A DNA stretch of 38,852 bases from Candidatus Omnitrophota bacterium. GTDB taxonomy: Bacteria > Omnitrophota > Gorgyraeia > JAUYCX01 > JBMONJ01. Where the stretch lies: positions 1 through 38,852 of the forward strand of contig JBMONJ010000173.1 in NCBI GenBank assembly GCA_049324655.1, given 5' to 3'. Of this stretch, positions 1,244 to 30,385 are shown one piece after another; the stretch's first letter is position 1; every line of letters starts with the position of its first letter. A program made the position numbers and the translations under genes. The notes below the pieces were generated by a model that was given only the letters and a program-made list of their open reading frames with translations, searched no databases and was not told where the DNA came from.

Positions 1244-1361
1244 GTATTGGGGGTGAGTTGTGTGTTGTGGGGCGGGTTGTGGGGATGGGTTGTGAGGTTA
1301 TTAATACCTCACCCTCACTACGCACAACTCGACACCCAACTCACAACCCACCCTCATTCCC
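1244..1361. repeat. Family-1 G/T-word foldback element, copy 1 (118 nt)
   Basis: Starts gtattgggggtgag and ends ccaccctcattccc. The 5' arm is made of gtgag/ttgtg words and the 3' arm of ctcac/cacaac words, around the centre gtgaggttattaatacctcac. It has the same termini and length as the copy at 9826..9943. Confidence 0.8.
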
Positions 1362-1382
1362 TGCAAAATCTGAACTTTCCCC

Positions 1383-1411
1383 TTGTTTTGTTAAAGTTTT
1401 GCCGATATAAT
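1383..1411 (+). promoter_or_regulatory. Weak sigma70-like promoter candidate upstream of bamA
   Basis: ttgttt, 17 nt spacer, then tataat (1406..1411). The -10 box ends only 7 nt before the bamA ATG, so the fit is uncertain. Confidence 0.25.
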
Positions 1412-1418
1412 TAGGAAA

Positions 1419-3743
1419 ATGAAGATTTGCCGGAATTTACTTTTTTGCTTAGCCGTTTTGTCTGCGGCTGATTTTTTATATGCCCAAGAACCCGGCCAAA
1501 GCCCCATCTCTAAGGAATCTCCGAAACTGGTAAAGGCTATAGAGGTAAAAGGCAACCGCACTATCGCTACCGCGGTCATTCTCTCCAAGATCAAGACTAA
1601 AATCGGGCAGGAATATCTGCAAAATGTCATCAGCGAGGACATCAAAAGGCTTTACAGCACCGGATATTTCAGCGATGTCAACATCGACCGGGAAGATTAT
1701 CAGGCGGGGTTTAAGGTTATTTTTGTCCTTACGGAGAAACCGATAATCGAGAAGATAAGTTTCAGCAAGACGCGGTTTATCCGGGAGAGAAAACTGCGCA
1801 CAGTCATTGCTTCCAAGGATGGCGCGTTCTTGGACGAAAAAGTCATCAAGGACGACTTACGTTCCATCGCCGAGCTTTACCGTAAAGAAGGTTTCTCGTT
1901 GGCCAGCGTTGATTATGCCACCGAGATTGACGCGGCCGGGGCCAAGGCAAAGTTGAATTTCATCATCGAAGAGGGTCGCCGGACGCGCATCACCAAGATT
2001 TTCATAAAAGGTAACTCGTCATTTAAATCCGGTCGCATCCTCAAACTGATAAAGACCCGTCCCCGGTCGTTGTTTAACGCCGGTTTCTATAAAAGAGAGA
2101 TTCTCGACGAGGATATGGAGCGAATTGTCGCCTTCTACAATGGCGAGGGATTTTTGGACGCCAAGGCGGACTATGAGATTGATGAATCAAAGAAGAATCG
2201 CCTTTATGTCCGGATAAACATTGCCGAAGGCAAACGGTATTATGTGGGCAAGGTGACGGTATCCGGCAACACGGTGTTCTCCGAGAATGAGATTAAAGCC
2301 CAGATAAAGGAAACCAAGCCGGCAAAGATTTTCGCGCGAGCTCGGCTGGACGCGGATGCGGACAGTATCCGCGCGCTTTATTTCGACAAGGGTTATATCT
2401 TCGCCGATATCAAGTCCGATACCCTGCTCGATCCGGAAAGCGGCAAGGTGGATGTGACTCTGATTGTTGATGAAGGCGTGGTGGCCTATGTCAACAAGAT
2501 AAAGGTTCGTGGCAATGTTAAAACCAAGGATATAGTTATCCGTAGGGAATTAAGGATAAGGCCGGGAGACCGCTTTGATGGAAGCAAATTACGCCGCAGT
2601 CAGGAGCGCCTGCGCAATTTGGGTTTCTTTGAAGAAATAAGTTATGATGTGGAGATGCCCGAGCGGCCCTCGGAGGATAAGCGGGACTTGGTAGTGGAGG
2701 TTAAGGAATCCAAGACCGGGGAATTCAGTTTCGGCGGCGGATACAGTACTGTTGATCAGCTGGTCGGTTTTATCCAGTTAGAGCAGAAGAACTTCGACTG
2801 GAAGAATTTCCCGACCTTTACCGGCGCCGGACAAGACATTAAACTTCATTACGAGGCGGGCACGCTTAAACAGAACGCCTATTTAAGCTTTACTGAGCCG
2901 TGGCTCTTTGATTATCCGGTTTCCTTCGGCTTTGATGCCTTTCGCACCGAGCATAAACGCGCCGAGGATGTGGGTTACGGTTATGATGACAAGCGGGTCG
3001 GCGGCGACCTGCGGTTGGGCAAAGAATTTTCCGATTACCTGAAGGGTAACGCGATATATTCGCTGGAAGATATTACGATAAGCAATATTGACGATGCGGC
3101 GAGCTCCGAGTTAAAGAAAGAGGCTGGGACCAATACCGTGAGCAGGTTAGGACTGGGTCTTACCTACGACACCCGCGATAATATCTTAGACCCTACGCGG
3201 GGTTATATGCTTAACGCTTTTCTTGAGGGTGCGGGTGGGCCTTTAAGCGGAGACAAGAATTTCACCCGCTACACCTTTAAGGGTAGCTTAGATATACCGC
3301 TTGCCTTTAAATCAGTCTTGGAATTCCGTGGCCAGGCGGGTTTTGCCGATGCCTTCGGTGACTCGGATGAGGTGCCGATTTATGAAAGATATTTTGCCGG
3401 CGGCGCTTACACGATACGCGGATACAATGAAAGAAATGTCGGTCCGGTTGACCCTGCTTCCAATGATCCCATCGGCGGTAATTCCATGCTCGTCGGGAAT
3501 ATCGAACTTACCGTCCCGTTAATGGATTTTATTCGTGCCGCGGGTTTCTTCGATACCGGTAATGTCTGGGAAAAGGCCAAAGATTTCGGCAGCGGCGGTT
3601 TCAAATCCGGTTTAGGGTTTGGTTTCCGGGTCAAGACGCCTATCGGCCCGATAAGGCTGGATTACGGCTTCCCCTTAAACGAAGAGCCGGGAGAGGATAA
3701 AAAGAAAGGTAAATTCTATTTTAGTATGAGCCAGAACTTTTAA
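1419..3743 (+). CDS. bamA: Outer membrane protein assembly factor BamA (Omp85 family)
   Basis: 774 aa with an N-terminal signal peptide, repeated POTRA-like modules (IKVRGN..T.D..IRREL) and a C-terminal beta-barrel ending GFGFRVKTPIGPIRLDYGFPL...FYFSMSQNF. The aggaaa RBS sits before the ATG. Confidence 0.92.
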   Translation: MKICRNLLFCLAVLSAADFLYAQEPGQSPISKESPKLVKAIEVKGNRTIATAVILSKIKTKIGQEYLQNVISEDIKRLYSTGYFSDVNIDREDYQAGFKVIFVLTEKPIIEKISFSKTRFIRERKLRTVIASKDGAFLDEKVIKDDLRSIAELYRKEGFSLASVDYATEIDAAGAKAKLNFIIEEGRRTRITKIFIKGNSSFKSGRILKLIKTRPRSLFNAGFYKREILDEDMERIVAFYNGEGFLDAKADYEIDESKKNRLYVRINIAEGKRYYVGKVTVSGNTVFSENEIKAQIKETKPAKIFARARLDADADSIRALYFDKGYIFADIKSDTLLDPESGKVDVTLIVDEGVVAYVNKIKVRGNVKTKDIVIRRELRIRPGDRFDGSKLRRSQERLRNLGFFEEISYDVEMPERPSEDKRDLVVEVKESKTGEFSFGGGYSTVDQLVGFIQLEQKNFDWKNFPTFTGAGQDIKLHYEAGTLKQNAYLSFTEPWLFDYPVSFGFDAFRTEHKRAEDVGYGYDDKRVGGDLRLGKEFSDYLKGNAIYSLEDITISNIDDAASSELKKEAGTNTVSRLGLGLTYDTRDNILDPTRGYMLNAFLEGAGGPLSGDKNFTRYTFKGSLDIPLAFKSVLEFRGQAGFADAFGDSDEVPIYERYFAGGAYTIRGYNERNVGPVDPASNDPIGGNSMLVGNIELTVPLMDFIRAAGFFDTGNVWEKAKDFGSGGFKSGLGFGFRVKTPIGPIRLDYGFPLNEEPGEDKKKGKFYFSMSQNF

Positions 3744-3749
3744 GTAAAG

Positions 3750-4277
3750 GTGAGGAGGTATAAATTGAAAAATCTGAAGATTTTTTTGGCGACAGTGATA
3801 ATCCTGGGTTTTGCCGCTGGCGGTTTATGCGCGCAGGAGGCGATGAGATTCGCTTATGTGGATTTAAGCCGCCTGTTCGACGAATACTATAAGACCAAGG
3901 AATACGACGAGATTTTAAGCGGCAAGGCCAAGGTGAAGGAAGAGGAGCGCGGCAAAATCATAAATGTAATCAAGGACCTGCAGGCAAAGCTGGCCCTGGT
4001 AAGCGACAAGGAAAAAGACAAATTGCAGTCTCAGCTTGACGCAAAGATGAAGTCGTTAGAGGAATTTGACCGTGAGGCAACGGCTGATTTACGCAAGCAG
4101 CGCGACGAGCTGTTGCGCGAGGTCCTCAAGGATATTGAAAAGGTAGTGCGTGATTATGCCCAGAAGGAGAAATACGATTTTATCTTTAACGACCGTATAC
4201 TCCTTTACGGCGACGATGGTTATGATATTACCCAGCCGCTGATTAAGATTTTAAACGAGAAGGCGAAAAAGAAATAA
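3750..4277 (+). CDS. skp: Periplasmic chaperone Skp/OmpH
   Basis: About 170 aa with a signal peptide followed by lysine/glutamate-rich coiled coil. It sits in the classic position between bamA and lpxD. The true start may be TTG at 3765, which is 7 nt after a gaggagg RBS. Confidence 0.8.
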
Positions 4278-4282
4278 CCGAT

Positions 4283-5341
4283 ATGCGTAAGACATTGGCG
4301 GAAATTGCCAGCATAGTTGACGGAGAGATTATAGGCGACGGTGCAGTAGTCATCACCGGCATCTGCGGGATAAAAGAGGCCAAGCCCGGGGATTTGACCT
4401 TTGTGGCCAATCCCAAGTACCTTTCGCTTATGGAGCAGACGCAGGCCTCGGCGATTATTACCTCTAAAGAGATAAAATCGGCGCCCAAGCCGATTATCCG
4501 CACCGAGAATCCTTCGTTGGCCTTTGCCAAAATGGTTTCTTTAATTGCGCCAAATGAGGTACCGCATTTCTCCGGCGTGCATAAGACAGCGATCATCGGC
4601 CAGAATGTTAAACTCGGTAAAGATATCGCCGTCGGCCCCTATGTGATCGTGGAGGATAACGCGGTAATTGGAGAGCGTACCGTCATTTATGCCGGATGTT
4701 ATATTGGTCATCATGCGATAATCGGTAAGGACTGTCTTATTTATCCGGGCGTTTCCATTCGCGAGAGGATAACTATCGGCGGGAGGGTAATTATTCACAG
4801 CGGGACGGTTATCGGTTCCGACGGGTTCGGCTTTGCCACTATTAAGGGGTTGCACCATAAGATTCCGCAAATAGGCACGGTGATTATCGAAGACGATGTG
4901 GAAGTCGGCGCCAATGTCACTATTGACCGCGCGCGATTTGACAAGACGGTTATCGGTAAGGGGACCAAGATTGATAATTTAGTGCAAATCGCGCATAATG
5001 TTATCGTCGGAGAAAATTGTATCATCGTCGCCCAAGCGGGCATCTCCGGCAGCACGGCGCTGGGCAAGAATGTTCTCTTGGCCGGACAGGCCGGTTTAGT
5101 CGGTCATATCACCATCGGCGACGGCGTGGTAGTTGCGGCCCAAGCCGGCGTAACCAAATCGGTTCCCGCCAATACCAAGGTATCTGGATATCCCGCCAAA
5201 CCTCACGATACAGCTAAGAAGGTAAACGCCTGCCTGCAGCGTCTTCCCCAGCTCGTAGATAAGGTAAAGGAACTTGAGAAGAAGCTCGCTGAATTACAGG
5301 AGCAGCTGAAAAGCAAATATTCTACTTCGCATAGCCAATGA
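4283..5341 (+). CDS. lpxD: UDP-3-O-acylglucosamine N-acyltransferase LpxD
   Basis: N-terminal [16 protein letters not shown]...[12 protein letters not shown] followed by long left-handed beta-helix hexapeptide repeats. Confidence 0.92.
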
Positions 5342-5424
5342 GAAAAAATGGTAAATGCTTCGAAGAATATTCTCCGAAGCCCTACCACAGTTTGACTATG
5401 TAAGGGCGAAGGAGAATAGACGCC

Positions 5425-6738
5425 ATGGACTTGCAGAAAACTATAAGAAAAACCGTCTCCTTGGAAGGTATCGGTTTGCATACTGGCGGCCGGGTGAAGG
5501 TTACCTTTAAGCCGGCGCTGGCTAATGCGGGAATAAATTTTATCCGCGTGGATTTACCCGGAAAGCCGGTTATCTGCGCCGCGATAGATAATATTTTAGA
5601 TATTGATAAGGCCCCGCGCCGGACCTCGGTGGGTAAAGACGGAGTGGAGATTCATACCGTCGAGCATCTAATGGCCACCCTCTGCGGATTAGGCGTAGAT
5701 AATCTCAATATCGATATTGATAATAACGAAGTCCCTGGTTTGGACGGCAGCGGTCTCAATTTCTTAGAGGCCATTAAAGATGCGGGATTAGAGGAGCAGC
5801 AGTCTGCGCGGCGTTATTTCTATGTCAAAGAACCGGTGATGGTAGAGGAAAGAGATTGTTTCCTGGCCGCCTTTCCCCACGCCCACTACAAGATTGCCTA
5901 TACTCTCGATTATCATCATCCCTTAATGAAGGCGCAGTATTTGAATATCGAGTTAAACCACGAGAGCTTTGAAAAGGAAGTGGCGGGTTTTCGTACCTTT
6001 GTGTTGGAGGACGAGGTTGAGGATTTAAAGCTGCGCGGTCTTGGCCGGGGGGCAAACTATGAAAATACCCTCGTCGTCGGCGAAAAAGGCATAAAGGAAA
6101 ATACCCTGCGCGCGGAGAATGAATTTGTCCGGCACAAAGTACTGGATTTAATCGGCGACCTTTATCTTTTGGGAATGCCGATAAAGGCGGCGGTGGTCGG
6201 GGCAAAGAGCGGCCATGCGCTGAATATTCGTCTGTTAAAAAAAATAAATGAGCAAAAGGGCCAGTTTGAATTAGGCGGCGTGCAAGCGACGAGTATCGCC
6301 CGTGGCAAGGAACTGGATATTTCCCAGATAATGAAGATCCTGCCCCACCGTTATCCATTTCTCTTGGTAGACCGCATCATTTCCATTGAAGATGGCAAGC
6401 GCGCCGTGGGCGTAAAGAATGTCACCATTAACGAAGGTTTTTTCCAAGGCCACTTTCCCCAGCGTCCAGTGATGCCCGGGGTGTTGATTATCGAAGCCAT
6501 GGCGCAGGTGGGCGGCGTATTGATGCTTTCACAGGAACAGCATATGGGCAAAATTGCCTATTTTATCGCTGCCAACAACATAAAATTCCGCAAGACGGTG
6601 ACTCCCGGTGACCAGCTGGTTTTAGAGGTGGAGATTATAAAGGTTAAATCCAAGACCGGTCAGGTGCATACCGTTGCCAAGGTTGATGGCCGGGTGGTTG
6701 CTGAGGCAGATCTAATGTTTACTTTGGTTGAATCGTAA
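5425..6738 (+). CDS. lpxC-fabZ: Bifunctional LpxC deacetylase / FabZ 3-hydroxyacyl-ACP dehydratase fusion
   Basis: The N-terminal ~280 aa are LpxC-like (TIRKTVSLEGIGLHTGG, HTVEHL, HKVLDLIGDL). The C-terminal ~145 aa are FabZ-like (LPHRYPFLLVDRI, GHFPQRPVMPGVLIIEAMAQ). Confidence 0.9.
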   Translation: MDLQKTIRKTVSLEGIGLHTGGRVKVTFKPALANAGINFIRVDLPGKPVICAAIDNILDIDKAPRRTSVGKDGVEIHTVEHLMATLCGLGVDNLNIDIDNNEVPGLDGSGLNFLEAIKDAGLEEQQSARRYFYVKEPVMVEERDCFLAAFPHAHYKIAYTLDYHHPLMKAQYLNIELNHESFEKEVAGFRTFVLEDEVEDLKLRGLGRGANYENTLVVGEKGIKENTLRAENEFVRHKVLDLIGDLYLLGMPIKAAVVGAKSGHALNIRLLKKINEQKGQFELGGVQATSIARGKELDISQIMKILPHRYPFLLVDRIISIEDGKRAVGVKNVTINEGFFQGHFPQRPVMPGVLIIEAMAQVGGVLMLSQEQHMGKIAYFIAANNIKFRKTVTPGDQLVLEVEIIKVKSKTGQVHTVAKVDGRVVAEADLMFTLVES

Positions 6739-6774
6739 GCTAAAACGGGATTCGTTCGCAGAGCTTAATACAGA

Positions 6775-6800
6775 GACAGCAAATTATTTTGTTGTCTTTC
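6775..6800 (+). terminator. Candidate intrinsic terminator after lpxC-fabZ
   Basis: 9 bp stem gacagcaaa/tttgttgtc (one G.T pair), loop ttat, followed by tttc. Confidence 0.4.
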
Positions 6801-6820
6801 GAAGTTTGCGATATTATACT
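6792..6820 (+). promoter_or_regulatory. Sigma70-like promoter candidate for the 3-gene cassette
   Basis: ttgtct (6792..6797), 17 nt spacer, tatact (6815..6820). A ggagga RBS lies at 6832..6837 and the ATG at 6841. Confidence 0.45.
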
Positions 6821-6840
6821 ATTTCCCGGATGGAGGATAA

Positions 6841-7245
6841 ATGGACAAGCCAAAACCGATAGTCCTGTCGATGATAATATGCGACACCGTGCTTGATGAT
6901 AGGGCTACCAACAAGAAAACATTGGTTGGATTGTTTAGCAATATTTGGGCTTCTTCTTGTCCTTGCGTTCATCCGCGGCTTAATGTTTTTATAACCTTAA
7001 CTGATGGAAGAGGCAGTTATCAGGGTAGCTTAAAGTGTGTTAACGAAGATACGAATACGGAAATACTGAGACTTGAAGGTCCCATAATTTTTCAGAGCGG
7101 AGAGCATATTATAGAGTTAAATTTTGAATTAGTTAATGTTCGTTTCCCCGCTTTTGGAAGTTATCACTTTGAGTTTTGGTGCGACGGCGATATTCTAATA
7201 ACCAGAAGATTCGCAGTCACACAGCAGGAAAGCGTGGGAAGATAA
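6841..7245 (+). CDS. Hypothetical small protein (134 aa), first gene of the AT-rich cassette
   Basis: Good RBS and no recognisable catalytic motif. The alternating hydrophobic pattern looks beta-rich (IVLSMIICDTVL, LNVFITL, HIIELNFELVNVRF, GSYHFEFWCDGDILITRRFAV). It resembles small DUF-type beta-sandwich proteins, but that is from memory and unverified. Its stop is 1 nt before the next start. Confidence 0.6.
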   Translation: MDKPKPIVLSMIICDTVLDDRATNKKTLVGLFSNIWASSCPCVHPRLNVFITLTDGRGSYQGSLKCVNEDTNTEILRLEGPIIFQSGEHIIELNFELVNVRFPAFGSYHFEFWCDGDILITRRFAVTQQESVGR

Positions 7246-7246
7246 A

Positions 7247-7498
7247 ATGATAGACATAGTTCAAACTGACAGCCCGTCGGGACTTTACAATTTCTCGTCA
7301 AAAGAAAAAAATACGATAGTCAAAGGTATTCCCACAACTTGCCATAAGTTTGTCTTTCGTCACTCTATTATAGTTTCTAGCGTTGAGTTGTCGGACGAAG
7401 AAATGATCGCCATCGCCGAAAGGGCGGGGACATTTTCTTTTCTTAACAAGCCAGAAGAAGATATTTACACGATGGAAGATGGCGAAGCGGTCCAATGA
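7247..7498 (+). CDS. Putative antitoxin (83 aa) partner of the MazF/PemK toxin
   Basis: Its stop overlaps the toxin start (ATGA). It is small with an acidic C-terminus (LSDEEMIAIAERAG..FLNKPEEDIYTMEDGEAV). I recognised no DNA-binding motif. Confidence 0.5.
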   Translation: MIDIVQTDSPSGLYNFSSKEKNTIVKGIPTTCHKFVFRHSIIVSSVELSDEEMIAIAERAGTFSFLNKPEEDIYTMEDGEAVQ

Positions 7499-7842
7499 AA
7501 AAAGGCGATATATTATTAGTACGTTTTCCCTTTACCGATTTGACTTCTCTAAAAGTTCGTCCCACGGTAGTAATATCTCCGGATTCATATAATAAACAGC
7601 ATCAAGATCTGCTCTTAATGTTTATTACGACGAACGTCTCGACCTCCGGACCAGAAGATTTTCTACTAACAAATAAACACCCGGAGTTTGCTTTAACCGG
7701 TCTTAAAGTAAATTCGCTTTTCAAGATAAGTAAAATTAGTATTCTATCAAAACGTCTCGCTGTAAGAAAATTAGGCAATATCGGCCCCCAAATTTCTTCA
7801 GAGATAAATTCCAGATTGCAATCCTTCCTTCAATTAATGTAA
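7495..7842 (+). CDS. MazF/PemK-family toxin (endoribonuclease)
   Basis: N-terminal KKGDILLVRFPFTDLTSLKVRPTVVIS followed by LLLMFITTN, the hallmark pattern of PemK/MazF SH3-like toxins. 115 aa. Confidence 0.75.
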   Translation: MKKGDILLVRFPFTDLTSLKVRPTVVISPDSYNKQHQDLLLMFITTNVSTSGPEDFLLTNKHPEFALTGLKVNSLFKISKISILSKRLAVRKLGNIGPQISSEINSRLQSFLQLM

Positions 7843-7880
7843 TAACATAATTTTTGCCTTCCCGCCCGCCTTGAGTATTG

Positions 7881-7909
7881 TTGACAGTACTATTCCAATG
7901 TGTTAAAAT
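7881..7909 (+). promoter_or_regulatory. Strong sigma70-like promoter candidate upstream of aroK
   Basis: Consensus ttgaca (7881..7886), 17 nt spacer, extended -10 tgttaaaat (taaaat at 7904..7909). Confidence 0.55.
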
Positions 7910-7943
7910 TCCTCGTCTATGGAGAGCAATGTAAAAAATACAT

Positions 7944-7988
7944 CTTGACGCTAATTACCGCGAATCTATTAGCAGCCATTAGCGTTAA
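7944..7988. repeat. Family-3 cgctaat/attagcg-word box
   Basis: cttgacgctaattaccgcgaatctattagcagccattagcgttaa. Both halves recur upstream of topA (9769..9790 and 9947..9967). The arms acgctaat and attagcgt are complementary. Confidence 0.65.
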
Positions 7989-8013
7989 TCGAGTTTCTCA
8001 ATGCACTTCAGCT

Positions 8014-8535: not shown

Positions 8536-8545
8536 TGCGGCATTT

Positions 8546-8635
8546 TGGGTGAGGATGGGTTGTGGGTTGTGAGTCGAGTTGTGTGTTGTGGGGGTGGGTA
8601 TTAATGACCTCACAACTCACCCCCAATGCCCACTA
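8546..8635. repeat. Family-1 G/T-word foldback element, copy 2 (opposite orientation to copy 1)
   Basis: Starts tgggtgaggatgggttgtg and ends cctcacaactcacccccaatgcccactac. Its right end is the reverse complement of the left end of copies 1 and 3. Confidence 0.75.
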
Positions 8636-8648
8636 CATATTCACAAAA

Positions 8649-9755
8649 ATGGATGAGCAAGAAAGTCTGATTGCCTTAAACCTGATAGAGAGCTTTCCCG
8701 CGGTTAAGCTGCGCCGGCTCTTTGACCATCTTGGTTCGGGGAAAAAGATTTTATCGGCCTTGCCGGAGGAATTGACGCGGGTGGAAGGTATAACTGCGGT
8801 CTTGGCGAGAAAGATTGGTCAGATTGAGAAATATCGAGTTGAGAAAGAATTGTCCCTGCTTAAAAAACATCACTTTAAGGTCATTACCATTAATGATAAA
8901 GATTATCCGCAGAATTTGCGCAGCTTACCGGATGCGCCATTGGTGCTTTATGTAAAAGGAAGTTTTACTCCCGAAGATGCGCAGGCCGTGGCCATTGTTG
9001 GTTCGCGCCGAGCCTCGATGTATGGAATCTCCTGCGCGCGGAAATTCAGCCGCGAATTGGCAGAATTGGGTATTACGGTGGTTTCCGGAATGGCGCGTGG
9101 AGTAGATACGGCAAGTCACGAAGGGGCATTGTCGGTTAAGGGGCGCACCATAGCTGTTTTGGGTAGTGGTCTCTTAAATATCTATCCGCCGGAAAATAAA
9201 AAGCTGGCAGAGAAGATTGCGCAAGCTGGCGCGGTGATTTCCGAGTTTCCTTTAGAGACCGCACCGTTCGCTTATAATTTTCCCCGCAGAAACCGTATCA
9301 TCAGCGGTATTTCTTTAGGGGTAGTGGTGGCGGAGGCAGCCAAGAACAGTGGAGCGTTGATCACTGCTGGATGTGCTTTGGAACAAGGCAGAGAGGTTTT
9401 TGCCGTGCCGGGAAAAGTGGACAGCACGAATTCTCAAGGAGTAAACGCGCTCATCCGGCAGGGGGCAAAACTTACTGCCAACATTGAGGATATCCTTGAA
9501 GAGCTGCGTTTACCGTTAAATGAGAATTTCAAACGGGCGCGGCAGGAGTCAAAGGCGAAGGCCGCGCCCCATCCCTCCTTAAGCGCGGCCGAGCATTCGC
9601 TGCTTCAAGGCTTAAGCGACTCGCCGGTGCATTTAAATGAGCTCTTGGAAAACAGTAGCCTGCAGCTTAACGAGGTTATGTCGCTTTTGACGCAGCTGGA
9701 ATTGCGTCGGGTCGTCAAACAGTTGCCGGGAAAGTTCTTTGTTAAAGTCAATTGA
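8649..9755 (+). CDS. dprA: DNA processing protein DprA (Smf)
   Basis: Motifs VGSRRASMYG and GMARGVDTASHEGAL, a Rossmann-like DprA core and a C-terminal winged-helix tail. I prefer the ATG at 8649 because the longer ORF start lies inside the repeat. Confidence 0.9.
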   Translation: MDEQESLIALNLIESFPAVKLRRLFDHLGSGKKILSALPEELTRVEGITAVLARKIGQIEKYRVEKELSLLKKHHFKVITINDKDYPQNLRSLPDAPLVLYVKGSFTPEDAQAVAIVGSRRASMYGISCARKFSRELAELGITVVSGMARGVDTASHEGALSVKGRTIAVLGSGLLNIYPPENKKLAEKIAQAGAVISEFPLETAPFAYNFPRRNRIISGISLGVVVAEAAKNSGALITAGCALEQGREVFAVPGKVDSTNSQGVNALIRQGAKLTANIEDILEELRLPLNENFKRARQESKAKAAPHPSLSAAEHSLLQGLSDSPVHLNELLENSSLQLNEVMSLLTQLELRRVVKQLPGKFFVKVN

Positions 9756-9768
9756 GACCACGGAAACG

Positions 9769-9967
9769 CTTGACGCCAATTACCGCTAATTTATAGCGAA
9801 TTGCCACTAATACCTAGAGCTATGGGTATTGGGGGTGAGCTGTGAGTTGTATGTCGGGGGTGAGGATGAGGGTGGGGATTGTTTTATTACCCATTCCCGC
9901 TACCCACAACCCGACTCACAACACACAACCCACCCTCATTCCCAGAATTAGCGGCCATTAGCGTTAA
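9769..9967. repeat. Family-3 box split around a family-1 element
   Basis: cttgacgccaattaccgctaat (9769..9790) and attagcggccattagcgttaa (9947..9967) match the two halves of the contiguous box at 7944..7988. Here they are about 155 nt apart, with the family-1 copy between them. Confidence 0.55.
9826..9943. repeat. Family-1 G/T-word foldback element, copy 3 (118 nt)
   Basis: Starts gtattgggggtgagc and ends ccaccctcattccc, with the same termini and length as copy 1. Confidence 0.8.
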
Positions 9968-9989
9968 AATTTTATTTACCTGTAAATCA

Positions 9990-11981: not shown

Positions 11982-11995
11982 CGTTTAGCGGCGAG

Positions 11996-12065: not shown

Positions 12066-12076
12066 AGAAAAAAAAC

Positions 12077-12946: not shown

Positions 12947-12952
12947 GATTAT

Positions 12953-13073
12953 AATGTCAAATGAACAATGTCAAATAAATTCCCCTGCCTGCGGCAGGCA
13001 ATTTCCAATTCCCAATATTTGAAGTGGACCCCTGGGATTGGACATTTATTTGGCATTTGAAATTTGACATTGG
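12953..13073. repeat. Family-2 tgtcaaat/ccaat-word foldback
   Basis: 5' arm aatgtcaaatgaacaatgtcaaataaattccc and 3' arm gggattggacatttatttggcatttgaaatttgacattgg, with an inner hairpin ctgcctgcggcagg. Confidence 0.7.
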
Positions 13074-13084
13074 TGATTCTAAAG

Positions 13085-14374: not shown

Positions 14375-14500
14375 CCGGGCTGTATAAAGTTTCCCGTCGG
14401 TTGTCGTCTAAAAAGGTTACGGCCTCGGTAAAGTATCGGTTACGTATAAAAAGTCTTGGGTGTATGTAAGGCTATCAAAGGCCCGCTTCGCGGAGCGAAG

Positions 14501-14772
14501 CGAGGCGAGCATATATGGCATATAAGGCTAACAAGGCAACCGGGGTAAAGGGTTATTAGGTCAATATGGCGTTAATGTCAAATGCCAAATTTCCAATGCC
14601 AAATCAATGTCAAATTCGCCAATTCCAAATTGGACATTGGATATTGGGAATTTATTAGTCATTTGACATTGGGCATTGAACTTTATGGGCATTGGTCATT
14701 AATCGCCTAATAGCCTTTCTGCCTTTCATAGCCTCGAAAAATAATTCTTCACGATAGACGACTGGCGAAACC
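14501..14772. repeat. Long foldback element IR-A (family-2 core); inverted partner at 22179..22402
   Basis: Hand alignment to the reverse complement of 22179..22402 gives 224 aligned nt with 2 substitutions, plus a 48 nt insertion (14641..14688) that partly duplicates the adjacent gacattgggcatt sequence. It lies in a 465 nt ORF-free spacer. Confidence 0.85.
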
Positions 14773-14840
14773 TTATAGACGATACGTAGCCGCAACCAAA
14801 CCTTTTATAACGGAGACCAATATTTACATTTGAATCGCTT

Positions 14841-19874: not shown

Positions 19875-19905
19875 GTTGCAAAGATCCTCCATCAAGTAGG
19901 TGTAG

Positions 19906-20016
19906 TTTTGGGTATCGGTATGGGTAAGGTCGGGTTGTCGTTCTAGGTGTTGTTCTCGTTTTCGGAACGATAACCGCACCGATAACCAGAGCCAGACGTT
20001 ACCGATACCCAGAACG
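19906..20016. repeat. One-off word foldback (ggtatcgg/cgataacc words)
   Basis: ttttgggtatcggta (5' end) is complementary to taccgatacccagaa (3' end). The inner arms are built of ggttgtcg versus cgataacc words, centred near 19962. Confidence 0.65.
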
Positions 20017-20028
20017 AAAATATTTTTT

Positions 20029-22165: not shown

Positions 22166-22178
22166 GGGGATGTATGTT

Positions 22179-22402
22179 GGTTTCGTCAGTCGTCTATCGT
22201 GAAAAATTATTTTTCGAGGCTATGAAAGGCAGAAAGGCTATTAGGCGATTAATGACCAATGCCCAATGTCCAATTTGGAATTGGCGAATTTGACATTGAT
22301 TTGGCATTGGAAATTTGGCATTTGACATTAACGCCATATTGACCTAATAACCCTTTACCCCGGTTGCCTTGTTAGCCTTATATGCCATATATGCTCGCCT
22401 CG
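22179..22402. repeat. Long foldback element IR-B, inverted partner of 14501..14772
   Basis: See IR-A. It lies in a 339 nt ORF-free spacer between two heptosyltransferase genes. Confidence 0.85.
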
Positions 22403-22504
22403 CGGCGAGGTCGAGGGCCGGCAAGGCAGGGAGTCTTTGCGATTTAGCGGTGTAAAACGACTTTTTCAACAGTCTTCTAAACGCGGCCGTCTGAGAAATA
22501 TTCT

Positions 22505-24514
22505 ATGAAAATACTCTTTATAACCTTAAGTAACATCGGCGATGTAATTCTCACTCTTCCGGCAATGGATATCCTGCGCCGCGATTTTCCCGAGGCGCAA
22601 TTTACCGTACTTTGCTCAGAGAAGGCCGCGGATATTTTCCGTAATGACCCACAGGTGGAACTGTTAGTTTTTGACAAGCGTGCTTCAATAAAAGATTATA
22701 TCCGCCTTACCCTTGCTTTGAGAAAGGAATGTTTTGACTGGATATTCGATTTTCGCAATACCGCCTTTCCTTGGTTACTGCGCAGCCAGCGGCACACCTC
22801 TGCGTTTATCAAAATCCCTAAGGACATTGTGCATAAGAAAGGTCAGCATCTTTTCCGGTTAAGATCCATTTATCCCTTTGCCGGCGAGGCGGCGGCAAAT
22901 TCTATTTTTATAGAGGAGAAAGACCGGCAATTCATCGCCGATAAATTGGGAGTTCTTGAAGGACGCAAGTTGGTAGTCATCAGCGCTGGTGCAGCCAATG
23001 AATGGAAGTGTTGGACCGAAGAGGGTTTTGCCGTGGTAGCCGACTGGTTAATTGAAGAATACGCAGTGGCAGCGGTCTTGGTCGGCGATGAGAAGGATAG
23101 GGAGTCAAGCGGCCGGATAAGCGAGAAGATGCGCAACCGGCCGCTTAACCTCTCCGCAGAAACCTCGCTTAAGCAGTTGGCAGTTTTATTGTCCAAAGCT
23201 GATTTGGTAATTTCCAATGACAGCGCAGTAATGCACCTCGCCAGTTACTTAAATGTGCCGGTTGTTGCGTTGTTCGGCCCCAGCAACGAGAAAAGGTATG
23301 GGCCGTGGAGCAGGAAGCGTTTCGTGGTGCGTAGTAATGTGTCGTGTGCGCCTTGCGAAAAATCCGGTTGTGACCAGGAACATGATTGTATGCGCTCTAT
23401 CCCGCCACTGCAGGTTATCAAGGTACTTAAAGAGAATTTCTCCGAACTTAAAGTAGAACTTCCGGCGGCCAGGGATTTTTCTAAAGACAGAAAGCGGATT
23501 CTATTGGTGCGTACTGACCGTATCGGAGATGTACTGTTGACTACGCCGGTGCTTAAGGCCCTAAAGGAATTCTGGCCGTATAGTTATGTGGCGATGTTAA
23601 TCGCCCCGCAAACCCGCGAGATTGTAGAAGGTAATCCTTATTTAGACGAGGTGATGGTTTTTGATAAACAAAAAGGCTGGCGGGGATTTTGGGGGATGGT
23701 TAGGAAGTTAAGAAGTAAGCATTTTGATCTAGCTCTGGTTTTGCATACCAAGCGCTGGACTAATCTATTGTGTTTTCTTTCGGGGATAAAAGAACGGGTG
23801 GGGTATCATAATAATAAATTCGGTTTTCTTTTGACACAAAAGATTCCCGATACCCGGCCACAAGGCAAAATGCATGAAGCTGAATATTGTCTGGCGGCTT
23901 TAAGTAGGATTGGGATTCCGGCGCAATATTCCCCGCCGTTTATGCCGATAAGTTCTTCGGCTGAGATTTGGGCGGACGAGGTTCTGAAAAGTAATGGAGT
24001 GGCGAGAAAGGATTTATTGATCGCCCTTAATCCCGGGGCAAGTTGTCCTTCCAAGCGCTGGAGAGAGGAAAAATGGGCGATTTTGGCGCGGCGCTTGTCC
24101 GAAAAGCTCGGCGCCAAAATCGCCATCATATGCGGCTCTTCGGATATGTCGGTAGCCCAAGAAGTATTAAGCCGCGTATCTTTTCCGGTCATTGACCTTG
24201 CCGGCAAAACTTCGCTTAAGCAACTGGCCAGTTTTTTGCGCCGCGCTAATCTATTTATCACCAATGATTCCGGGCCAATGCATATTGCCTGTGCGGTGAA
24301 CACGCCGGTGGTGGCCGTTTTCGGCAGAAATGAAAAAGGATTAAGCCCAAGACGCTGGGGGCCCTGGGGAAAGCTCTCGACGGTGTTGCACAAAGAAGTG
24401 GGTTGCGAACTTTGCCTTGCCCACAACTGTCAGAAAGGCTTTGCCTGCCTTGAGGCAATTTCTCCTGAAGAAGTGCTGACAGTCGCAGAGCAACTTTTAA
24501 GTAGCTCACGATGA
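22505..24514 (+). CDS. Tandem GT9::GT9 heptosyltransferase fusion
   Basis: Two complete GT9 modules. Module 1 has ILFITLSNIGDVILTLPAM...ISNDSAVMHLASYLNVPVVALFGPS. Module 2 has ILLVRTDRIGDVLLTTPVLKAL...ITNDSGPMHIACAVNTPVVAVFG. Confidence 0.85.
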   Translation: MKILFITLSNIGDVILTLPAMDILRRDFPEAQFTVLCSEKAADIFRNDPQVELLVFDKRASIKDYIRLTLALRKECFDWIFDFRNTAFPWLLRSQRHTSAFIKIPKDIVHKKGQHLFRLRSIYPFAGEAAANSIFIEEKDRQFIADKLGVLEGRKLVVISAGAANEWKCWTEEGFAVVADWLIEEYAVAAVLVGDEKDRESSGRISEKMRNRPLNLSAETSLKQLAVLLSKADLVISNDSAVMHLASYLNVPVVALFGPSNEKRYGPWSRKRFVVRSNVSCAPCEKSGCDQEHDCMRSIPPLQVIKVLKENFSELKVELPAARDFSKDRKRILLVRTDRIGDVLLTTPVLKALKEFWPYSYVAMLIAPQTREIVEGNPYLDEVMVFDKQKGWRGFWGMVRKLRSKHFDLALVLHTKRWTNLLCFLSGIKERVGYHNNKFGFLLTQKIPDTRPQGKMHEAEYCLAALSRIGIPAQYSPPFMPISSSAEIWADEVLKSNGVARKDLLIALNPGASCPSKRWREEKWAILARRLSEKLGAKIAIICGSSDMSVAQEVLSRVSFPVIDLAGKTSLKQLASFLRRANLFITNDSGPMHIACAVNTPVVAVFGRNEKGLSPRRWGPWGKLSTVLHKEVGCELCLAHNCQKGFACLEAISPEEVLTVAEQLLSSSR

Positions 24515-24735
24515 AAAAGCTAAAATGGATAATCGCACGGGAGGTCTTGATACTTATTGCGTTGGGGGTTGTACTTCACCTGCTATTGTCTCTCCTGCAG
24601 AATGTGGCAATAGTTCTGCCGCAGTATCGCTCTCTTTTAGGCGTTAACTTTCTTTACCAACTGGCGATGGCCTATCTCGCTTGGTTTGTCGTCCGTTTTG
24701 CCATTTGGATAACCGGTGCGGTTAGGGATAAATGA
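24511..24735 (+). CDS. Small predicted membrane protein (74 aa, two hydrophobic helices)
   Basis: ATGA overlap with the upstream gene. It has two ~20 aa hydrophobic stretches and I recognised no homology. Confidence 0.45.
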   Translation: MKKLKWIIAREVLILIALGVVLHLLLSLLQNVAIVLPQYRSLLGVNFLYQLAMAYLAWFVVRFAIWITGAVRDK

Positions 24736-24741
24736 GGAGTG

Positions 24742-24770
24742 TTGACGCCTGCCTTAAACTATGGTAGAAT
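24742..24770 (+). promoter_or_regulatory. Sigma70-like promoter candidate overlapping the first ATG of the next ORF
   Basis: ttgacg (24742..24747), 17 nt spacer, tagaat (24765..24770). If it is used, translation would start at the ATG at 24782 on a near-leaderless mRNA. Confidence 0.35.
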
Positions 24771-25705
24771 CTCTCGAAAAAATGGACCTCGGTAAACTCA
24801 AAACTTATTCTCTAAATCGGCGTAAAAGCAAGGTTAATCTTCAGTTATTTGCCCGCTCCCTGCATAAAGGCGCCAGCTTTAAAGAGTTTTATGCCTCTTT
24901 GCCTAAGGTGCTGGCAGCAGAGAATTTGCATAAAGTATCGGCAGCGGTGGTAAACAGCGCCAAGGCCAAAAAAATGGTTATTTTTATGGCCGGCGCCCAT
25001 GTCCTCAAATGCGGCTTAAATCCTATTGTCATCAATTTAATAAAAAGAGGCGTCATCAAGTGCGTGGTCTTAAACGGCGCGGGCATTATCCATGACTTTG
25101 AGCTCGCCTATGCGGGGTTTACTTCCGAGGATGTCTCTGAGGCGATTAAAGACGGCAGCTTTGGCATGGCCAAGGAAACCGCAGAGTTTATTAACACGGC
25201 AATCAAAGAAGGGAATGACTGTGGCCTCGGCTTGGGAAAAAGTGTGGCCGAGGCCATAGATAAGCATAACCTGCCCCACAGAAATTTAAGTCTGCTTTAC
25301 AATTGCCTTAAATATAAAATTCCAGTTTGTGTGCAAGTGGCGATTGGCACGGATATTATCCATCAGCATCCTTCCTGCGACGGGGCAGCCGTGGGCGAGG
25401 CATCGTTACGCGATTTTCATCAGCTCATCGCGCAAGTGGCAAAATTGGAAAAAGGCGTGTTGTTGAATTTCGGCTCCGCAGTGATTCTGCCCGAGGTTTT
25501 CTTAAAAGCCCTGACCGTAGCCAGAAATTTAGGTTATAAGGTAAAGGATTTTACCACGGCAAATTTCGATATGCTTTTCCATTACCGGCCGCAGCAGAAT
25601 ATCGTTTGCCGCCCAACCCAAGGTACGGGCAAAGGTTATTATATCCTCGGCCATCACGAGATTATGCTGCCCCTCTTGGCAGCGGCTGTCATTGAGAAAC
25701 TTTGA
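24761..25705 (+). CDS. Deoxyhypusine synthase (DHS)-fold family protein, function unknown
   Basis: Blocks are collinear with eukaryotic DHS as I recall it: VIFMAGAHVLKCGLNPIVINLIKRGVIKCVVLNGAGIIHDF, KYKIPVCVQVAIGTDIIHQH, GVLLNFGSAV, and C-terminal MLPLLAAAV. Alternative start at 24782. Confidence 0.55.
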   Translation: MVESLEKMDLGKLKTYSLNRRKSKVNLQLFARSLHKGASFKEFYASLPKVLAAENLHKVSAAVVNSAKAKKMVIFMAGAHVLKCGLNPIVINLIKRGVIKCVVLNGAGIIHDFELAYAGFTSEDVSEAIKDGSFGMAKETAEFINTAIKEGNDCGLGLGKSVAEAIDKHNLPHRNLSLLYNCLKYKIPVCVQVAIGTDIIHQHPSCDGAAVGEASLRDFHQLIAQVAKLEKGVLLNFGSAVILPEVFLKALTVARNLGYKVKDFTTANFDMLFHYRPQQNIVCRPTQGTGKGYYILGHHEIMLPLLAAAVIEKL

Positions 25706-25724
25706 ATTATTATGAAGAGCCGTC

Positions 25725-25820
25725 TACACCGCTAAAGCGCAAAATGTCCGCAAAAGCGCAAAGATTTTCCTATCAAAAAGAACTTTGCGTCTTTGCGGGT
25801 TTTGGCGGTTTTGCGGTGTA
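25725..25820. repeat. One-off word foldback (gcgcaaa/tttgcg words)
   Basis: 5' arm tacaccgctaaagcgcaaaatgtccgcaaaagcgcaaag and 3' arm ctttgcgtctttgcgggttttggcggttttgcggtgta. It ends 8 nt before the hldA start. Confidence 0.7.
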
Positions 25821-25827
25821 AAAATCT

Positions 25828-26838
25828 ATGAAAAATCTTAAACAAATAATTTCAGAATTTAACCGCGTCAGGATAATGGTGGTCGGCGACTTGGTTTGGG
25901 ATGAATTTATCTGGGGAAAGGTGGAGAGGATTTCTCCCGAGGCGCCGGTGCCGGTTGTGTTAGAAACCCGCAGGTCCTATATGCCTGGGGGCGCGGCAAA
26001 TGTCGCCAATAACTTAAGGAGTATCGGTTGTGCGGTAAGTCTCGTCGGAAAAGTCGGCGATGATGCGGAAGGCAAAACGCTCCTTGAGGACATAAAAAAA
26101 CTGGGCATTGCGACTAACGGGATCCTGTGCGATAAAAAATCACCTACCATTGTCAAGACCCGGGTTATTGCCCAGCACCAGCAGGTGGTGCGGGTTGATC
26201 GGGAGACCGTAGGCTTAAGTCCTGACTTCGCAAATCAGCTGGCTACTTTTATCATTAAGCAGCTTCCCGCCTTCGATGCGATCATCATTGAAGATTACGG
26301 CAAAGGAGTAATCAATCCCGGCTTACTGCATAAAGTTTTTCCGGTTGCCCGTCAGTTAAACAAGGTAATTGCCGTGGACCCCAAAGAGGATCACTTTGAT
26401 TTTTACGCGGGCGCCACAGTGATTACCCCGAACCGCAAAGAAGCGGAAAATGCCGTGAGTTATCTCAAGATAAAAGACGACCAGAATCGTTTTCGAATGA
26501 ATGTCGCCCGCCTCAACACCGACAAGGATCTTAACTCGGCGGGCAAAGAGTTGCTGCGTTATCTTGATCTGGAAGCGGTATTGATTACCTTGGGCGAGCA
26601 AGGGATGCGGTTGTTTGAGAAGGACAAGCCACCCCTGCATATCGATACTGTGGCGCAGGAAGTTTTTGATGTCTCCGGTGCCGGAGATACAGTAATCGCT
26701 GTCTTTACTGCGGCCTTGGCCAGCGGTGCCGGGAAAAGAGAATCCGCCATTCTTGCCAATTTTGCCGCGGGTATTGTCGTCGGTAAATTAGGCGTTGCTA
26801 CCGTCAGCCAACAGGAATTACTTAAGACTATAAGATAG
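25828..26838 (+). CDS. hldA: D-glycero-beta-D-manno-heptose-7-phosphate kinase (RfaE domain I, PfkB family)
   Basis: VGDLVWDEFIWGKVERISPEAPVPV, ITPNRKE and DVSGAGDTVIAVF. It has the kinase domain only, with no adenylyltransferase domain. Confidence 0.88.
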   Translation: MKNLKQIISEFNRVRIMVVGDLVWDEFIWGKVERISPEAPVPVVLETRRSYMPGGAANVANNLRSIGCAVSLVGKVGDDAEGKTLLEDIKKLGIATNGILCDKKSPTIVKTRVIAQHQQVVRVDRETVGLSPDFANQLATFIIKQLPAFDAIIIEDYGKGVINPGLLHKVFPVARQLNKVIAVDPKEDHFDFYAGATVITPNRKEAENAVSYLKIKDDQNRFRMNVARLNTDKDLNSAGKELLRYLDLEAVLITLGEQGMRLFEKDKPPLHIDTVAQEVFDVSGAGDTVIAVFTAALASGAGKRESAILANFAAGIVVGKLGVATVSQQELLKTIR

Positions 26839-26853
26839 GGATTAAGAAGTATT

Positions 26854-26977
26854 TGTTGTGAGTAGTGTGGGTGAGTTGTGAGTAGTGAGTCGAGTTGTGG
26901 GTTGTGAGGGTGAGGAGAAATATTCCCCACCCCCATCCCCATTACCCGACCCACAACACACAACTCATCCGCACCCC
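26854..26977. repeat. Family-1 G/T-word foldback element, copy 4
   Basis: 5' arm ttgtgagtagtgtgggtgagttgtgagtagtgagtcgagttgtgggttgtgagggtgagg with a ~7 nt gtgag periodicity. 3' arm ccccacccccatccccattacccgacccacaacacacaactcatccgcacccc. Confidence 0.75.
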
Positions 26978-27011
26978 AAGAGTAAAATATTATTTCACCT
27001 CAAACAAGACG

Positions 27012-29361
<2,350 letters not shown>

Positions 29362-29363
29362 GA

Positions 29364-29448
29364 CACGGATTTACACGGATTTAATTCGGATTTGCACGGA
29401 TATGATTTGTCCGTGCTAATCCGGTTTCTTATCTGTGTTAATCCGTGC
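29364..29448. repeat. One-off word foldback (cacggatt/aatccgtg words)
   Basis: 5' arm cacggatttacacggatttaattcggatttgcacgga and 3' arm tccgtgctaatccggtt...taatccgtg. It fills the pyrG-kdsA spacer. Confidence 0.7.
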
Positions 29449-29454
29449 AATAAT

Positions 29455-30288
29455 ATGGTTAAGGCAATAAGAGTAAAGGACATCAAAATCGGCACGGGTC
29501 AGCCGCTCGTGTTAATCGCCGGGCCTTGCGTGATTGAAAGCCGGGATGCGGCTTTACGCGCGGCAAAAAGACTTAAATCCCGCGTCGGAAAACTTAAGAT
29601 GCCGTTTATATTTAAGTCAAGTTATGATAAAGCCAACCGCACCTCGATTAAGTCCTTTCGCGGCCCGGGCCTTAAAAGGGGGTTGCAGGTTTTAAGGGAA
29701 ATTAAGGAAACGCTGGCTGTGCCGGTTTTAAGCGATGTGCATTCGGTTGTCGAGGTCAAGGCCGCGGCCCAGGTTTTGGATGTGATACAAATACCCGCAC
29801 TCTTGTCACGGCAGACGGATTTGCTGCGCGCTGCTGCTGAGACCGGCAAGGTTATCAATGTCAAGAAGGGCCAGTTTTCTGCGCCGTGGGATATGATTGA
29901 GGTTATAAAAAAGATTGAGAGCGCCGGGAATAAAAATATCCTGATAACCGAAAGGGGCGTAAGCTTCGGGTATAATAATCTGGTCTCGGATTTTCGTTCG
30001 TTGGTAATTATGCGTAAATTCGGTTATCCGGTGGTTTATGATGCCACGCACAGTGTGCAGCTTCCCGCGGGTGCCGGGGAAAGCTCCTCGGGACAGAGTG
30101 AGTTTGTACCGTTTTTGTCACGCGCGGCCGCGGCGGTGGGCTGCGACGGTTTGTTTTTGGAGGTGCATGAGAATCCCGCGGCCGCGCTCTGCGACGGCCC
30201 GAATATGATTTCCTTGCACGAGCTCGAGACCTTATTAAAACAAGTCATTGCCATTGAGAGAGCGTTAAAAAGTCAAGTTAGACGGTAG
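29455..30288 (+). CDS. kdsA: 3-deoxy-8-phosphooctulonate (Kdo-8-P) synthase
   Basis: LIAGPCVIES, FKSSYDKANR and VYDATHSVQ. I prefer the ATG at 29455 because the longer ORF start lies in the repeat. Confidence 0.92.
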   Translation: MVKAIRVKDIKIGTGQPLVLIAGPCVIESRDAALRAAKRLKSRVGKLKMPFIFKSSYDKANRTSIKSFRGPGLKRGLQVLREIKETLAVPVLSDVHSVVEVKAAAQVLDVIQIPALLSRQTDLLRAAAETGKVINVKKGQFSAPWDMIEVIKKIESAGNKNILITERGVSFGYNNLVSDFRSLVIMRKFGYPVVYDATHSVQLPAGAGESSSGQSEFVPFLSRAAAAVGCDGLFLEVHENPAAALCDGPNMISLHELETLLKQVIAIERALKSQVRR

Positions 30289-30293
30289 TTTCA

Positions 30294-30385
30294 GGGGTGA
30301 GGATGGGTTGTGAGTAGTGAGTCGGGTTGTGTGTTGTGAGGGTGGGGTGTTAATTCCTCACAACTCACCCACAATACTCACAACC
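30294..30385. repeat. Family-1 G/T-word foldback element, copy 5
   Basis: Starts ggggtgaggatgggttgtgag and ends cctcacaactcacccacaatactcacaacc, matching the termini of copy 2. Confidence 0.75.

Follow-up and report, generated by a model that had tools for sequence, protein, structure and literature searches.

Mismatch-keeping foldback repeats at operon junctions of an Omnitrophota genome: probable miniature relatives of IVS-like, heptamer-armed insertion elements

Omnitrophota are abundant, uncultivated bacteria with compact genomes. In contig JBMONJ010000173.1 of a Candidatus Omnitrophota bacterium (NCBI GenBank assembly GCA_049324655.1), which was analyzed over its whole length of 38,852 nucleotides and is here called the window (contig C173), five copies of a foldback repeat, hereafter family 1, lie in the spacers between genes. 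We interpret family 1 as the miniature members (~110–140 bp), lacking an open reading frame (ORF), of a class of heptamer-armed foldback insertion elements that resemble the intervening sequences (IVS) of 23S rRNA, and we assign this reading a probability of roughly 0.6. The features that go beyond the original prediction, made from the letters of the window, are the mismatches maintained in the stem, a copy that carries an S23p gene as cargo, and the occurrence of the family in other Omnitrophota genomes. The source is a metagenome-assembled genome (MAG) of 1.67 Mb in 230 contigs and 85% complete; it is thus fragmented and incomplete, and the gene models used throughout are our own crude ORF calls.

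Copies were identified with a covariance model (R1), which was trained on 41 oriented family-1 copies (alignment A1). All five foldbacks listed by the original prediction were recovered at the positions it gave, each of them matched by R1, and the genome as a whole holds ~70 loci (136 R1 matches). The matches mostly scored 100–118 bits on one strand and ~25 bits lower on the opposite strand, so that the orientation of a copy is defined. A composition scan for a G-rich run followed by a C-rich run returned 63 loci of at least 95 nt, and the core pattern TGNGTCGRGTWGTG had 47+47 occurrences on the two strands of the genome, as against 0 for the reversed control and 0–1 in each of 40 relatives. 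Since many copies sit at contig ends, the repeats evidently break assemblies. Other 10-mers reach the frequency of the family-1 words, namely GGCCAAGGCC (74 occurrences), GCCGGCGAGGAGGC-type words (64–73), and AATTCCAAAT (62).

Each copy is made of a G/T-rich arm nearly without C, a short A/T-rich loop, and a C/A-rich arm nearly without G. The arms are strings of GTGNGTW heptads that flank a unique centre (GTCGRG in the G arm, CYCGAC in the C arm), and the gtgag periodicity of ~7 nt that had been noticed earlier is real in the form of these heptads. The interiors had been described as not alignable, with the same words reshuffled; the copies nevertheless align in register, with a nearly constant distance from centre to centre and a span of 117–128 nt for copies anchored on both arm centres. 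The apparent reshuffling reduces to free variation at fixed N/W positions and to one heptad gained or lost in the inner stem. Among 46 copies of the source genome the paired positions are 95–100% invariant G-C or T-A, and at the N/W positions A, G, and T occur with nearly equal frequency (in the C arm, C, T, and A). In the inner stem the two arms differ in the order or number of words, leaving an internal loop or a 7-nt bulge that gives the element its orientation.

The identity between any two copies of the genome is at most 91%, except for one assembly duplicate (the ends of C28 and C129), and copies are on average only a little more similar within a genome (0.776) than between genomes (0.747). 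The nearest neighbor of a copy shares on average 16.7 of 22 variable sites with it, compared with 15.3±0.15 by chance, and this excess sharing of variable-site patterns indicates descent among copies. The original prediction had set the family apart from REP (repetitive extragenic palindromic) or MITE (miniature inverted-repeat transposable element) families copied from one master sequence. This holds insofar as near-identical pairs are missing; it does not hold for the structure of the family, which has one fixed scaffold and a weak division into subfamilies.

The free N/W position of each heptad is kept non-complementary to its partner in the opposite arm, and perfect duplex runs are accordingly short, typically 6–9 bp. 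Over the ten variable positions of the 46 copies, 117 of 460 pairs are Watson-Crick pairs, as opposed to 194±9 when the 3' letters were permuted among copies, and 0 of 20000 shuffles were as low. The same depletion was found in 14 copies from 12 other MAGs (41/140 versus 65±4.7). It is confined to the true register, because offsetting the partner by one heptad gave chance level, and a control test for identical neighboring heptads within one arm found no significant avoidance. An independent count gave standard pairs including G·U at 54.3% versus 62.7±1.2, and 5 double (compensatory) changes versus 32.6±4.6. The longest perfect run within the outer 36 positions has a mean of 7.2 bp (9.8±0.43 expected), and runs of at least 10 bp are present in 14% of copies (45% expected). 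Kinship among the copies raises the permutation significance somewhat; despite these inflated statistics, the size of the effect speaks against an artefact, as does the fact that other genomes show it too. Since the avoidance of complementarity is register-specific, the arms must at some stage come together in a hairpin or cruciform, and its symmetry between strands and orientations fits a constraint at the DNA level, or one that acts equally on either transcript.

Several sources of the mismatches were considered and rejected. An asymmetric master present in two orientations, or two types of arm, is contradicted by the lack of linkage between the states at different positions, and the mismatches persist after the copies are oriented by their inner asymmetry (position 35: A·C 23, G·T 13, G·C 12, A·T 0). 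Strand-specific selection on RNA was rejected because sense G·U was not significantly more frequent than A·C (90 versus 77, p = 0.35), with no consistent sign within elements and no difference in folding energy between sense and antisense. Diversification of the N positions by a reverse transcriptase, as in diversity-generating retroelements, is opposed by the lack of an RVT_1 gene in the genome and by the conserved A positions of the C arm, which argue against adenine mutagenesis.

Copies were gained at operon junctions, exactly between the stop codon and the next ribosome-binding site and in either orientation. Of ~50 classifiable copies, 48 lie between co-directional genes and one between convergent genes, typically 0–20 nt from the stop codon and from the next ribosome-binding site or start codon, and with no bias relative to transcription (21 against 17). 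Housekeeping junctions such as pyrH/frr, ribH/ribBA, and tsaB/tsaE carry copies. In the closest relative compared at the window junctions (L043, a Logan contig with a DprA 79% identical) the dprA-topA junction measures 4 nt and is without the element, as are the 123 nt upstream of dprA. Two further long contigs (L044 and L045, DprA 61% identical) keep the gene order from bamA to kdtA, and in both aroK/dprA and dprA/topA overlap by 8 nt. R1 found no match at the aroK-dprA-topA loci of the three, and these empty orthologous junctions identify window copies 2 and 3 as gains. The view of a structured, dispersed element gained by insertion is thereby upheld, given also the ~70 loci and the hairpin folds described below.

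The reverse comparison gave a similar picture, in that five foreign copies occupy spacers which in the source genome are empty or hold another hairpin. At L022 the junction reads TAG-[element]-AGGAGA-ATG and its counterpart at window 35220–35237 reads TAG-CAA-AGGAGA-ATG; the counterparts of the copies at L016 and L020 are junctions of 6–8 nt, and those of the copies at L010 and L018 hold unrelated hairpins. At one orthologous junction, both of two distant genomes have a copy (L014 and C230). The oriented flanks of 45 copies and the comparisons of filled with empty sites revealed neither direct repeats indicative of a target-site duplication nor a conserved target sequence, and around single-copy occurrences (nine loci in seven other genomes) only housekeeping operons and no candidate mobilizing genes were found. 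It was also observed that the same operon junctions tend to hold some hairpin in different genomes: two junctions that carry family 1 in other MAGs (C95:8990–9050 and C60:10607–10773) are occupied in the source genome, one by a GC-rich stem-loop and the other by a foldback of GCAGAT/ATCTGC words.

The link to IVS elements comes from a single cargo-bearing copy, C120:4898–5400, in which two complete family-1 arms (G arm 4898–4952, C arm 5336–5400) enclose, where the loop would be, an intact ORF of 113 codons (4960–5301). Its product matches PF05635 (23S_rRNA_IVP/S23p) with 55.6 bits and TIGR02436 with 48.6 bits, and the protein of solved structure closest to it in sequence is Xanthomonas XCC0516 (PDB 2GSC), with a weak E-value of 0.02. 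None of the five window copies has the ORF, nor do ~69 of the 70 loci. Five PF05635 genes were detected in the genome by hidden Markov model (HMM) and a sixth paralogue by tblastn; each of the remaining four found by HMM is bordered by mutually complementary arms made of other words, and both PF13366 (PDDEXK_3, GxxExxY) genes of the genome are likewise placed between inverted word arms of their own. The flank-complementarity scores of the S23p genes were 55, 49, 36, 28, and 20, compared with 417 control genes of 90–200 aa, whose median is 17 and whose 95th percentile is 23, with 1.7% reaching 30. In 15 other Omnitrophota MAGs ~20 of the 26 S23p genes examined have inverted tandem-heptamer arrays on their flanks, each built from a word of its own. 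In Coxiella, the IVS is a 428–444 nt element regarded as "selfish", with a 28-bp terminal stem, an S23p ORF, and excision by RNase III (PMC4990558), and PF05635 proteins resemble Avd, the accessory protein of diversity-generating retroelements (PMC10053308).

The surroundings of the cargo-bearing copy form an island of foldback cassettes (C120:3000–7400), in which a PDDEXK_3 gene between CACGGAT/ATCCGTG arms is followed by three S23p genes, one with AAAATCAAA/TTTTGATTT arms, one with the family-1 arms, and one with GTAGGG-type arms; a response-regulator gene lies among the cassettes. Some words flanking S23p genes are common to several MAGs, with ATAGACT/AGTCTAT found in two genomes (L060 (G045) and L064 (G336)) and CGTAAGT/ACTTACG-like words in three (L055, L056, and L065), which suggests that family 1 is not the only word family to cross genomes.

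The distribution of family 1 is sporadic. In 40 sampled relatives (one from the same order, plus 39 from the same class that each represent a different family) the pattern was not above chance, and scanning the GTDB species genomes for the exact pattern turned up typical copies in 12 other MAGs, which are labeled as Candidatus Omnitrophota in several cases, loosely as "uncultured Planctomycetia" by NCBI in some, and as Saganbacteria in one. Among 401 genomes sampled evenly from the phylum, 11 were positive with R1; ten of these belong to the same class, scattered over at least seven families and often with negative sister genera. Genomes elsewhere have up to 14 pattern matches, their copy numbers being lower bounds since the model search scored nine candidates per genome, and the source genome, with by far the most copies, holds the expansion of the family. 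Viral carriage was considered on the basis of one pattern match on an IMG/VR contig and was dropped, as R1 did not confirm the match.

The five window copies are listed in Table 1. The flanking genes named by the original prediction agree with the Pfam assignments (DnaB/BamA, shikimate kinase/DprA/TopA, PfkB kinase/KdsB-type cytidylyltransferase, and KdsA-type/SIS+CBS), and its suspicion that copies 2 and 5 are reversed relative to copies 1 and 3 is borne out by the R1 strands, with copy 4 siding with copies 2 and 5.

Table 1. Family-1 copies in the window (positions in nt from the first letter of the window).
Copy	Coordinates	R1 match	Strand	R1 score	State	Spacer
1	1244..1361	1248–1356	-	112.6 bits (+ strand 81.4)	full length	dnaB/bamA
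2	8546..8645	8550–8645	+	54.9 bits	G-rich arm complete, C-rich arm deleted internally	aroK/dprA
3	9826..9943	9830–9938	-	87.9 bits	full length	dprA/topA
4	26854..26977	26866–26973	+	110.7 bits	full length	PfkB-type kinase (hldA-like)/kdsB
5	30294..30391	30298–30391	+	49.1 bits	C-rich arm deletion as in copy 2	kdsA/kdsD

In the alignment, copies 2 and 5 lack the middle of the C-rich arm between two CACAAC words. Stable folding had been proposed as a check for all copies and was obtained for the full-length ones only. Copies 1, 3, and 4 form long imperfect hairpins on both strands, with RNA energies of -56 to -72 kcal/mol (z -4.6 to -10), for example -64.2 and -56.5 kcal/mol on the two strands of copy 1 (z about -5) and -63.9 and -72.3 kcal/mol for copy 4 (z -9 and -10), and with DNA energies of -26 to -33 kcal/mol (z -3 to -8). 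For copies 2 and 5 the folds are poor (z -0.3 to -5.6), copy 2 being the weak extreme at z -0.3. The consensus pairs alone of the aligned, oriented copies yielded only -7.6 kcal/mol and no covariation.

Two copies lie close to gene starts. Copy 5 ends 5 nt upstream of the ATG (30396) of the SIS+CBS gene, and the longest dprA ORF opens at a GTG within copy 2 (window 8562–8648), the conserved protein beginning at the ATG at 8649 (MDEQESL...); as this case illustrates, family-1 repeats produce spurious start codons and can mislead start calling. Copy 3 is nested between the halves of a palindromic CGCTAAT/ATTAGCG box. Upstream of aroK this box is contiguous and preceded by TTGACG (window 7944–7988), and upstream of topA it is split by extra words and copy 3 (9769–9825 / 9944–9967). 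The words of the box also bracket family-1 copies on C23, C85, C93, C101, and C217, and the genome holds 56 and 62 occurrences of ATTAGCGG/CCGCTAAT. A second word family (AATGTCAAAT / ATTTGACATT, TTGGCATT) is present in the window at 12953–13078, 14500–14772, 22179–22403, and 31372–31478; two of its blocks (156 nt and 87 nt, 97–98% complementary) bracket 7.4 kb (14500–14772 versus 22179–22403).

If family 1 belongs to an IVS-like element class, its short copies would be miniature, non-autonomous derivatives of S23p-type cassettes and would have spread via a step in which both arms pair, whether as a hairpin of single-stranded DNA, as a cruciform, or as RNA. The periodic mismatches would then be under selection, either because long perfect palindromes or double-stranded RNA in essential operons are deleterious (through deletion or through SbcCD-type or RNase III-type cleavage), or because the mobilizing machinery needs an irregular stem, analogous to the bulge that TnpA_REP needs in REP. 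Copies inside operons would be co-transcribed because of that position and probably also form intercistronic RNA hairpins, an effect we would regard as a by-product or secondary use and not as the reason why the family exists. Judging from gene position alone, the S23p or PD-(D/E)XK proteins may have a role in mobility.

A number of points weigh against this interpretation. The low identity between copies, with the assembly duplicate as the only closer pair, gives no sign of recent transposition, and no transposase was found linked to family 1, while just one of ~70 copies carries S23p. None of the 26 foreign S23p genes in the 15 MAGs has family-1 arms, and S23p is multi-copy in 16 of 22 relatives without family 1, so that the association is with the element class and not with family 1 itself. 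To our knowledge, S23p has no enzymatic activity. The conserved scaffold together with saturated N positions could mean host selection on each copy in place, and the mismatch statistics are affected by the relatedness of the copies noted above.

Host selection is taken furthest by the view that family 1 is an intercistronic RNA element, serving as a 3'-exonuclease barrier, for differential stability of cistrons, as a processing site for RNase III or another enzyme, or to uncouple translation, with insertion being secondary. The precise placement from stop codon to ribosome-binding site in housekeeping operons of the source and other genomes, the very stable RNA folds, and a scaffold that stays 95–100% conserved while the other positions are saturated all speak for it, as do the orthologous spacers with different hairpins, which suggest that any hairpin suffices, and the spacer filled in both L014 and C230. 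Against it, neither an orientation preference nor an excess of sense G·U over A·C nor a difference between sense and antisense energies was seen. Compensatory covariation is also lacking, since conserved pairs never vary and variable ones avoid pairing; close relatives have overlapping genes at the same junctions, and in the window two copies out of five are missing half of one arm. We consider this explanation unlikely. A family of intrinsic terminators, as the original prediction had proposed among other roles, would account for stable hairpins downstream of genes, but it is hard to reconcile with the missing T/U run after the 3' arm, with the location of nearly all classifiable copies in co-directional, tightly spaced, conserved operons directly ahead of the next ribosome-binding site (with a single copy between convergent genes), and with ~50 nt per arm interrupted by periodic mismatches, which is unlike known terminators; it has very little to recommend it.

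Mobilization in trans, as a REP family or as REPINs (REP doublets forming hairpins), by one of the two Y1 (HUH) transposases of the genome that resemble REP-associated tyrosine transposases (RAYT) was also weighed. Both PF01797 ORFs (~219 aa) match the NCBIfam model "REP-associated tyrosine transposase", family 1 consists of high-copy extragenic imperfect palindromes with GTAG within its words, and mismatches are essential for the action of E. coli TnpA_REP on REP. The two proteins, though, score 72.6 and 64.8 bits and thus below the NCBIfam cut-off of 80, and neither gene is flanked by family 1, the one on C126 having a different inverted repeat of its own (GGGGACACATNACTTAATT). Y1_Tnp is found in 16 of 20 relatives without the family and is missing from 5 of the 12 MAGs that have it, among them the two richest in copies; there is no co-occurrence across 43 genomes and no terminal GTAG/CGTC tag, and we regard mobilization by these enzymes as quite improbable. 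Hardly better placed, and if anything slightly behind, is a structural or binding site at the DNA level, meaning a sequence prone to form a G-quadruplex (G4), i-motif, or cruciform, or an array for a nucleoid or replication protein on the duplex arms. G and C are strictly segregated between the arms, GGG tracts arise whenever N is G, the constraint shows the strand and orientation symmetry that a DNA-level property should have, and in vitro G4 formation is documented for the G-rich heptamer repeats of Xanthomonas, many of which are arranged as inverted pairs (Rehm et al. 2015, PMC4692102). Against it, the GGG tracts hang on the variable N and lack conservation, an in-register avoidance of complementarity would be left unexplained by binding to duplex arms, and the sporadic distribution with empty orthologous sites speaks against a role in chromosome maintenance.

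Apart from family 1, the RAYT-like Y1 gene at C126:1–830 and its counterpart at L027:1380–2170 are flanked by their own inverted repeat GGGGACACAT(A/C)ACTTAATT, and a 20-mer of the RAYT inverted repeat recurs several times around a neighboring RHS/YD-like ORF. This repeat may be a separate REP-like family with a cognate RAYT.

The original prediction did not recognize the repeat as a described family, and we concur. Rfam gave 0 matches at the gathering thresholds, the sub-threshold ones being generic microRNA-precursor hairpins of at most 37 bits (thresholds 50–117), and the literature searched contained no description of such elements in Omnitrophota nor of maintained mismatches. With the 23S rRNA IVS of Coxiella burnetii and Leptospira (PMC4990558) family 1 shares the terminal inverted repeats that form a long stem and a sporadic occurrence, IVS being also regarded as selfish, and an S23p gene enclosed by the stem is exactly the layout of the C120 copy. 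It differs in that all of its copies lie between protein-coding genes (no rRNA is present in the window), whereas IVS are inserted in helix 9, 25, or 45 of 23S rRNA, and in that its arms are ~55 nt of heptad words with many mismatches, in contrast to the nearly perfect 28-bp stem of Coxiella. The REP elements and bacterial interspersed mosaic elements (BIME) of enterobacteria and the REPIN-RAYT systems of Pseudomonas (PMC3116915, PMC8266576) are likewise high-copy extragenic imperfect palindromes found in or after operons in both orientations, with conserved and variable positions and with mosaic or nested arrangements comparable to copy 3 within the CGCTAAT box. In E. coli the bulge mismatches of REP are required, and restoring the pairing abolishes TnpA_REP activity (PMC8266576). 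Family 1, in contrast, is without a cognate RAYT flanked by its repeats and without Y1 co-occurrence, it has fuzzy heptad runs in place of a GTAG/CGTC end tag (GTAG occurs only within the variable word GTWGTG), and it forms a single hairpin of 110–140 nt with heptad periodicity instead of two REPs of 20–40 nt.

The G-rich heptamer repeats of Xanthomonas (GGGAATC) and Nostoc (GGGGAYT) are similar as tandem 7-nt units followed by their complement, intergenic, dispersed, and with stem-loop or G4 potential (PMC4692102); these are simple arrays of one unit in variable copy number, whereas family 1 has a scaffold of fixed length with a unique centre (TCGRG/CYCGA), defined variable positions, and heterogeneous words, conserved across genomes. 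MITEs, too, are small, ORF-less, and multi-copy, with insertion polymorphism between genomes and a longer, ORF-bearing relative. Unlike them, family 1 has no target-site duplication and no transposase-encoding parent, and the entire element is palindromic, not just short terminal inverted repeats around an unrelated core. No insertion sequence with family-1 ends was found, and the sole ORF-bearing copy encodes S23p and not a known transposase. Family 1 is akin to REP/BIME/REPIN and MITE-type repeats and has one IVS-like member, yet it fails the defining features of each.

In a phylum of compact genomes, ~70 operon junctions of one genome have been given over to a single hairpin family, and others to its sister families. 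The register-exact avoidance of Watson-Crick pairing in these hairpins is the opposite of the covariation by which functional RNAs are detected, and the kept mismatches provide a concrete hypothesis that is testable by mutagenesis. The cargo-bearing member suggests a link among IVS elements, heptamer inverted repeats, and the widespread but functionally uncharacterized S23p/Avd-like four-helix-bundle genes, three phenomena so far treated separately. A broader conjecture, which we offer tentatively and hold to be rather doubtful, is that heptamer-armed foldbacks constitute one undescribed class of prokaryotic mobile elements uniting ORF-bearing IVS, S23p/PDDEXK_3 cassettes, and the many ORF-less word hairpins at Omnitrophota operon junctions. 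Such elements would be recognized by the geometry of a mismatched hairpin and not by sequence, the S23p pentamer (Avd-like) and/or the PD-(D/E)XK protein would provide the machinery for recognition and cutting, and the mismatch in each heptad would be part of the code.

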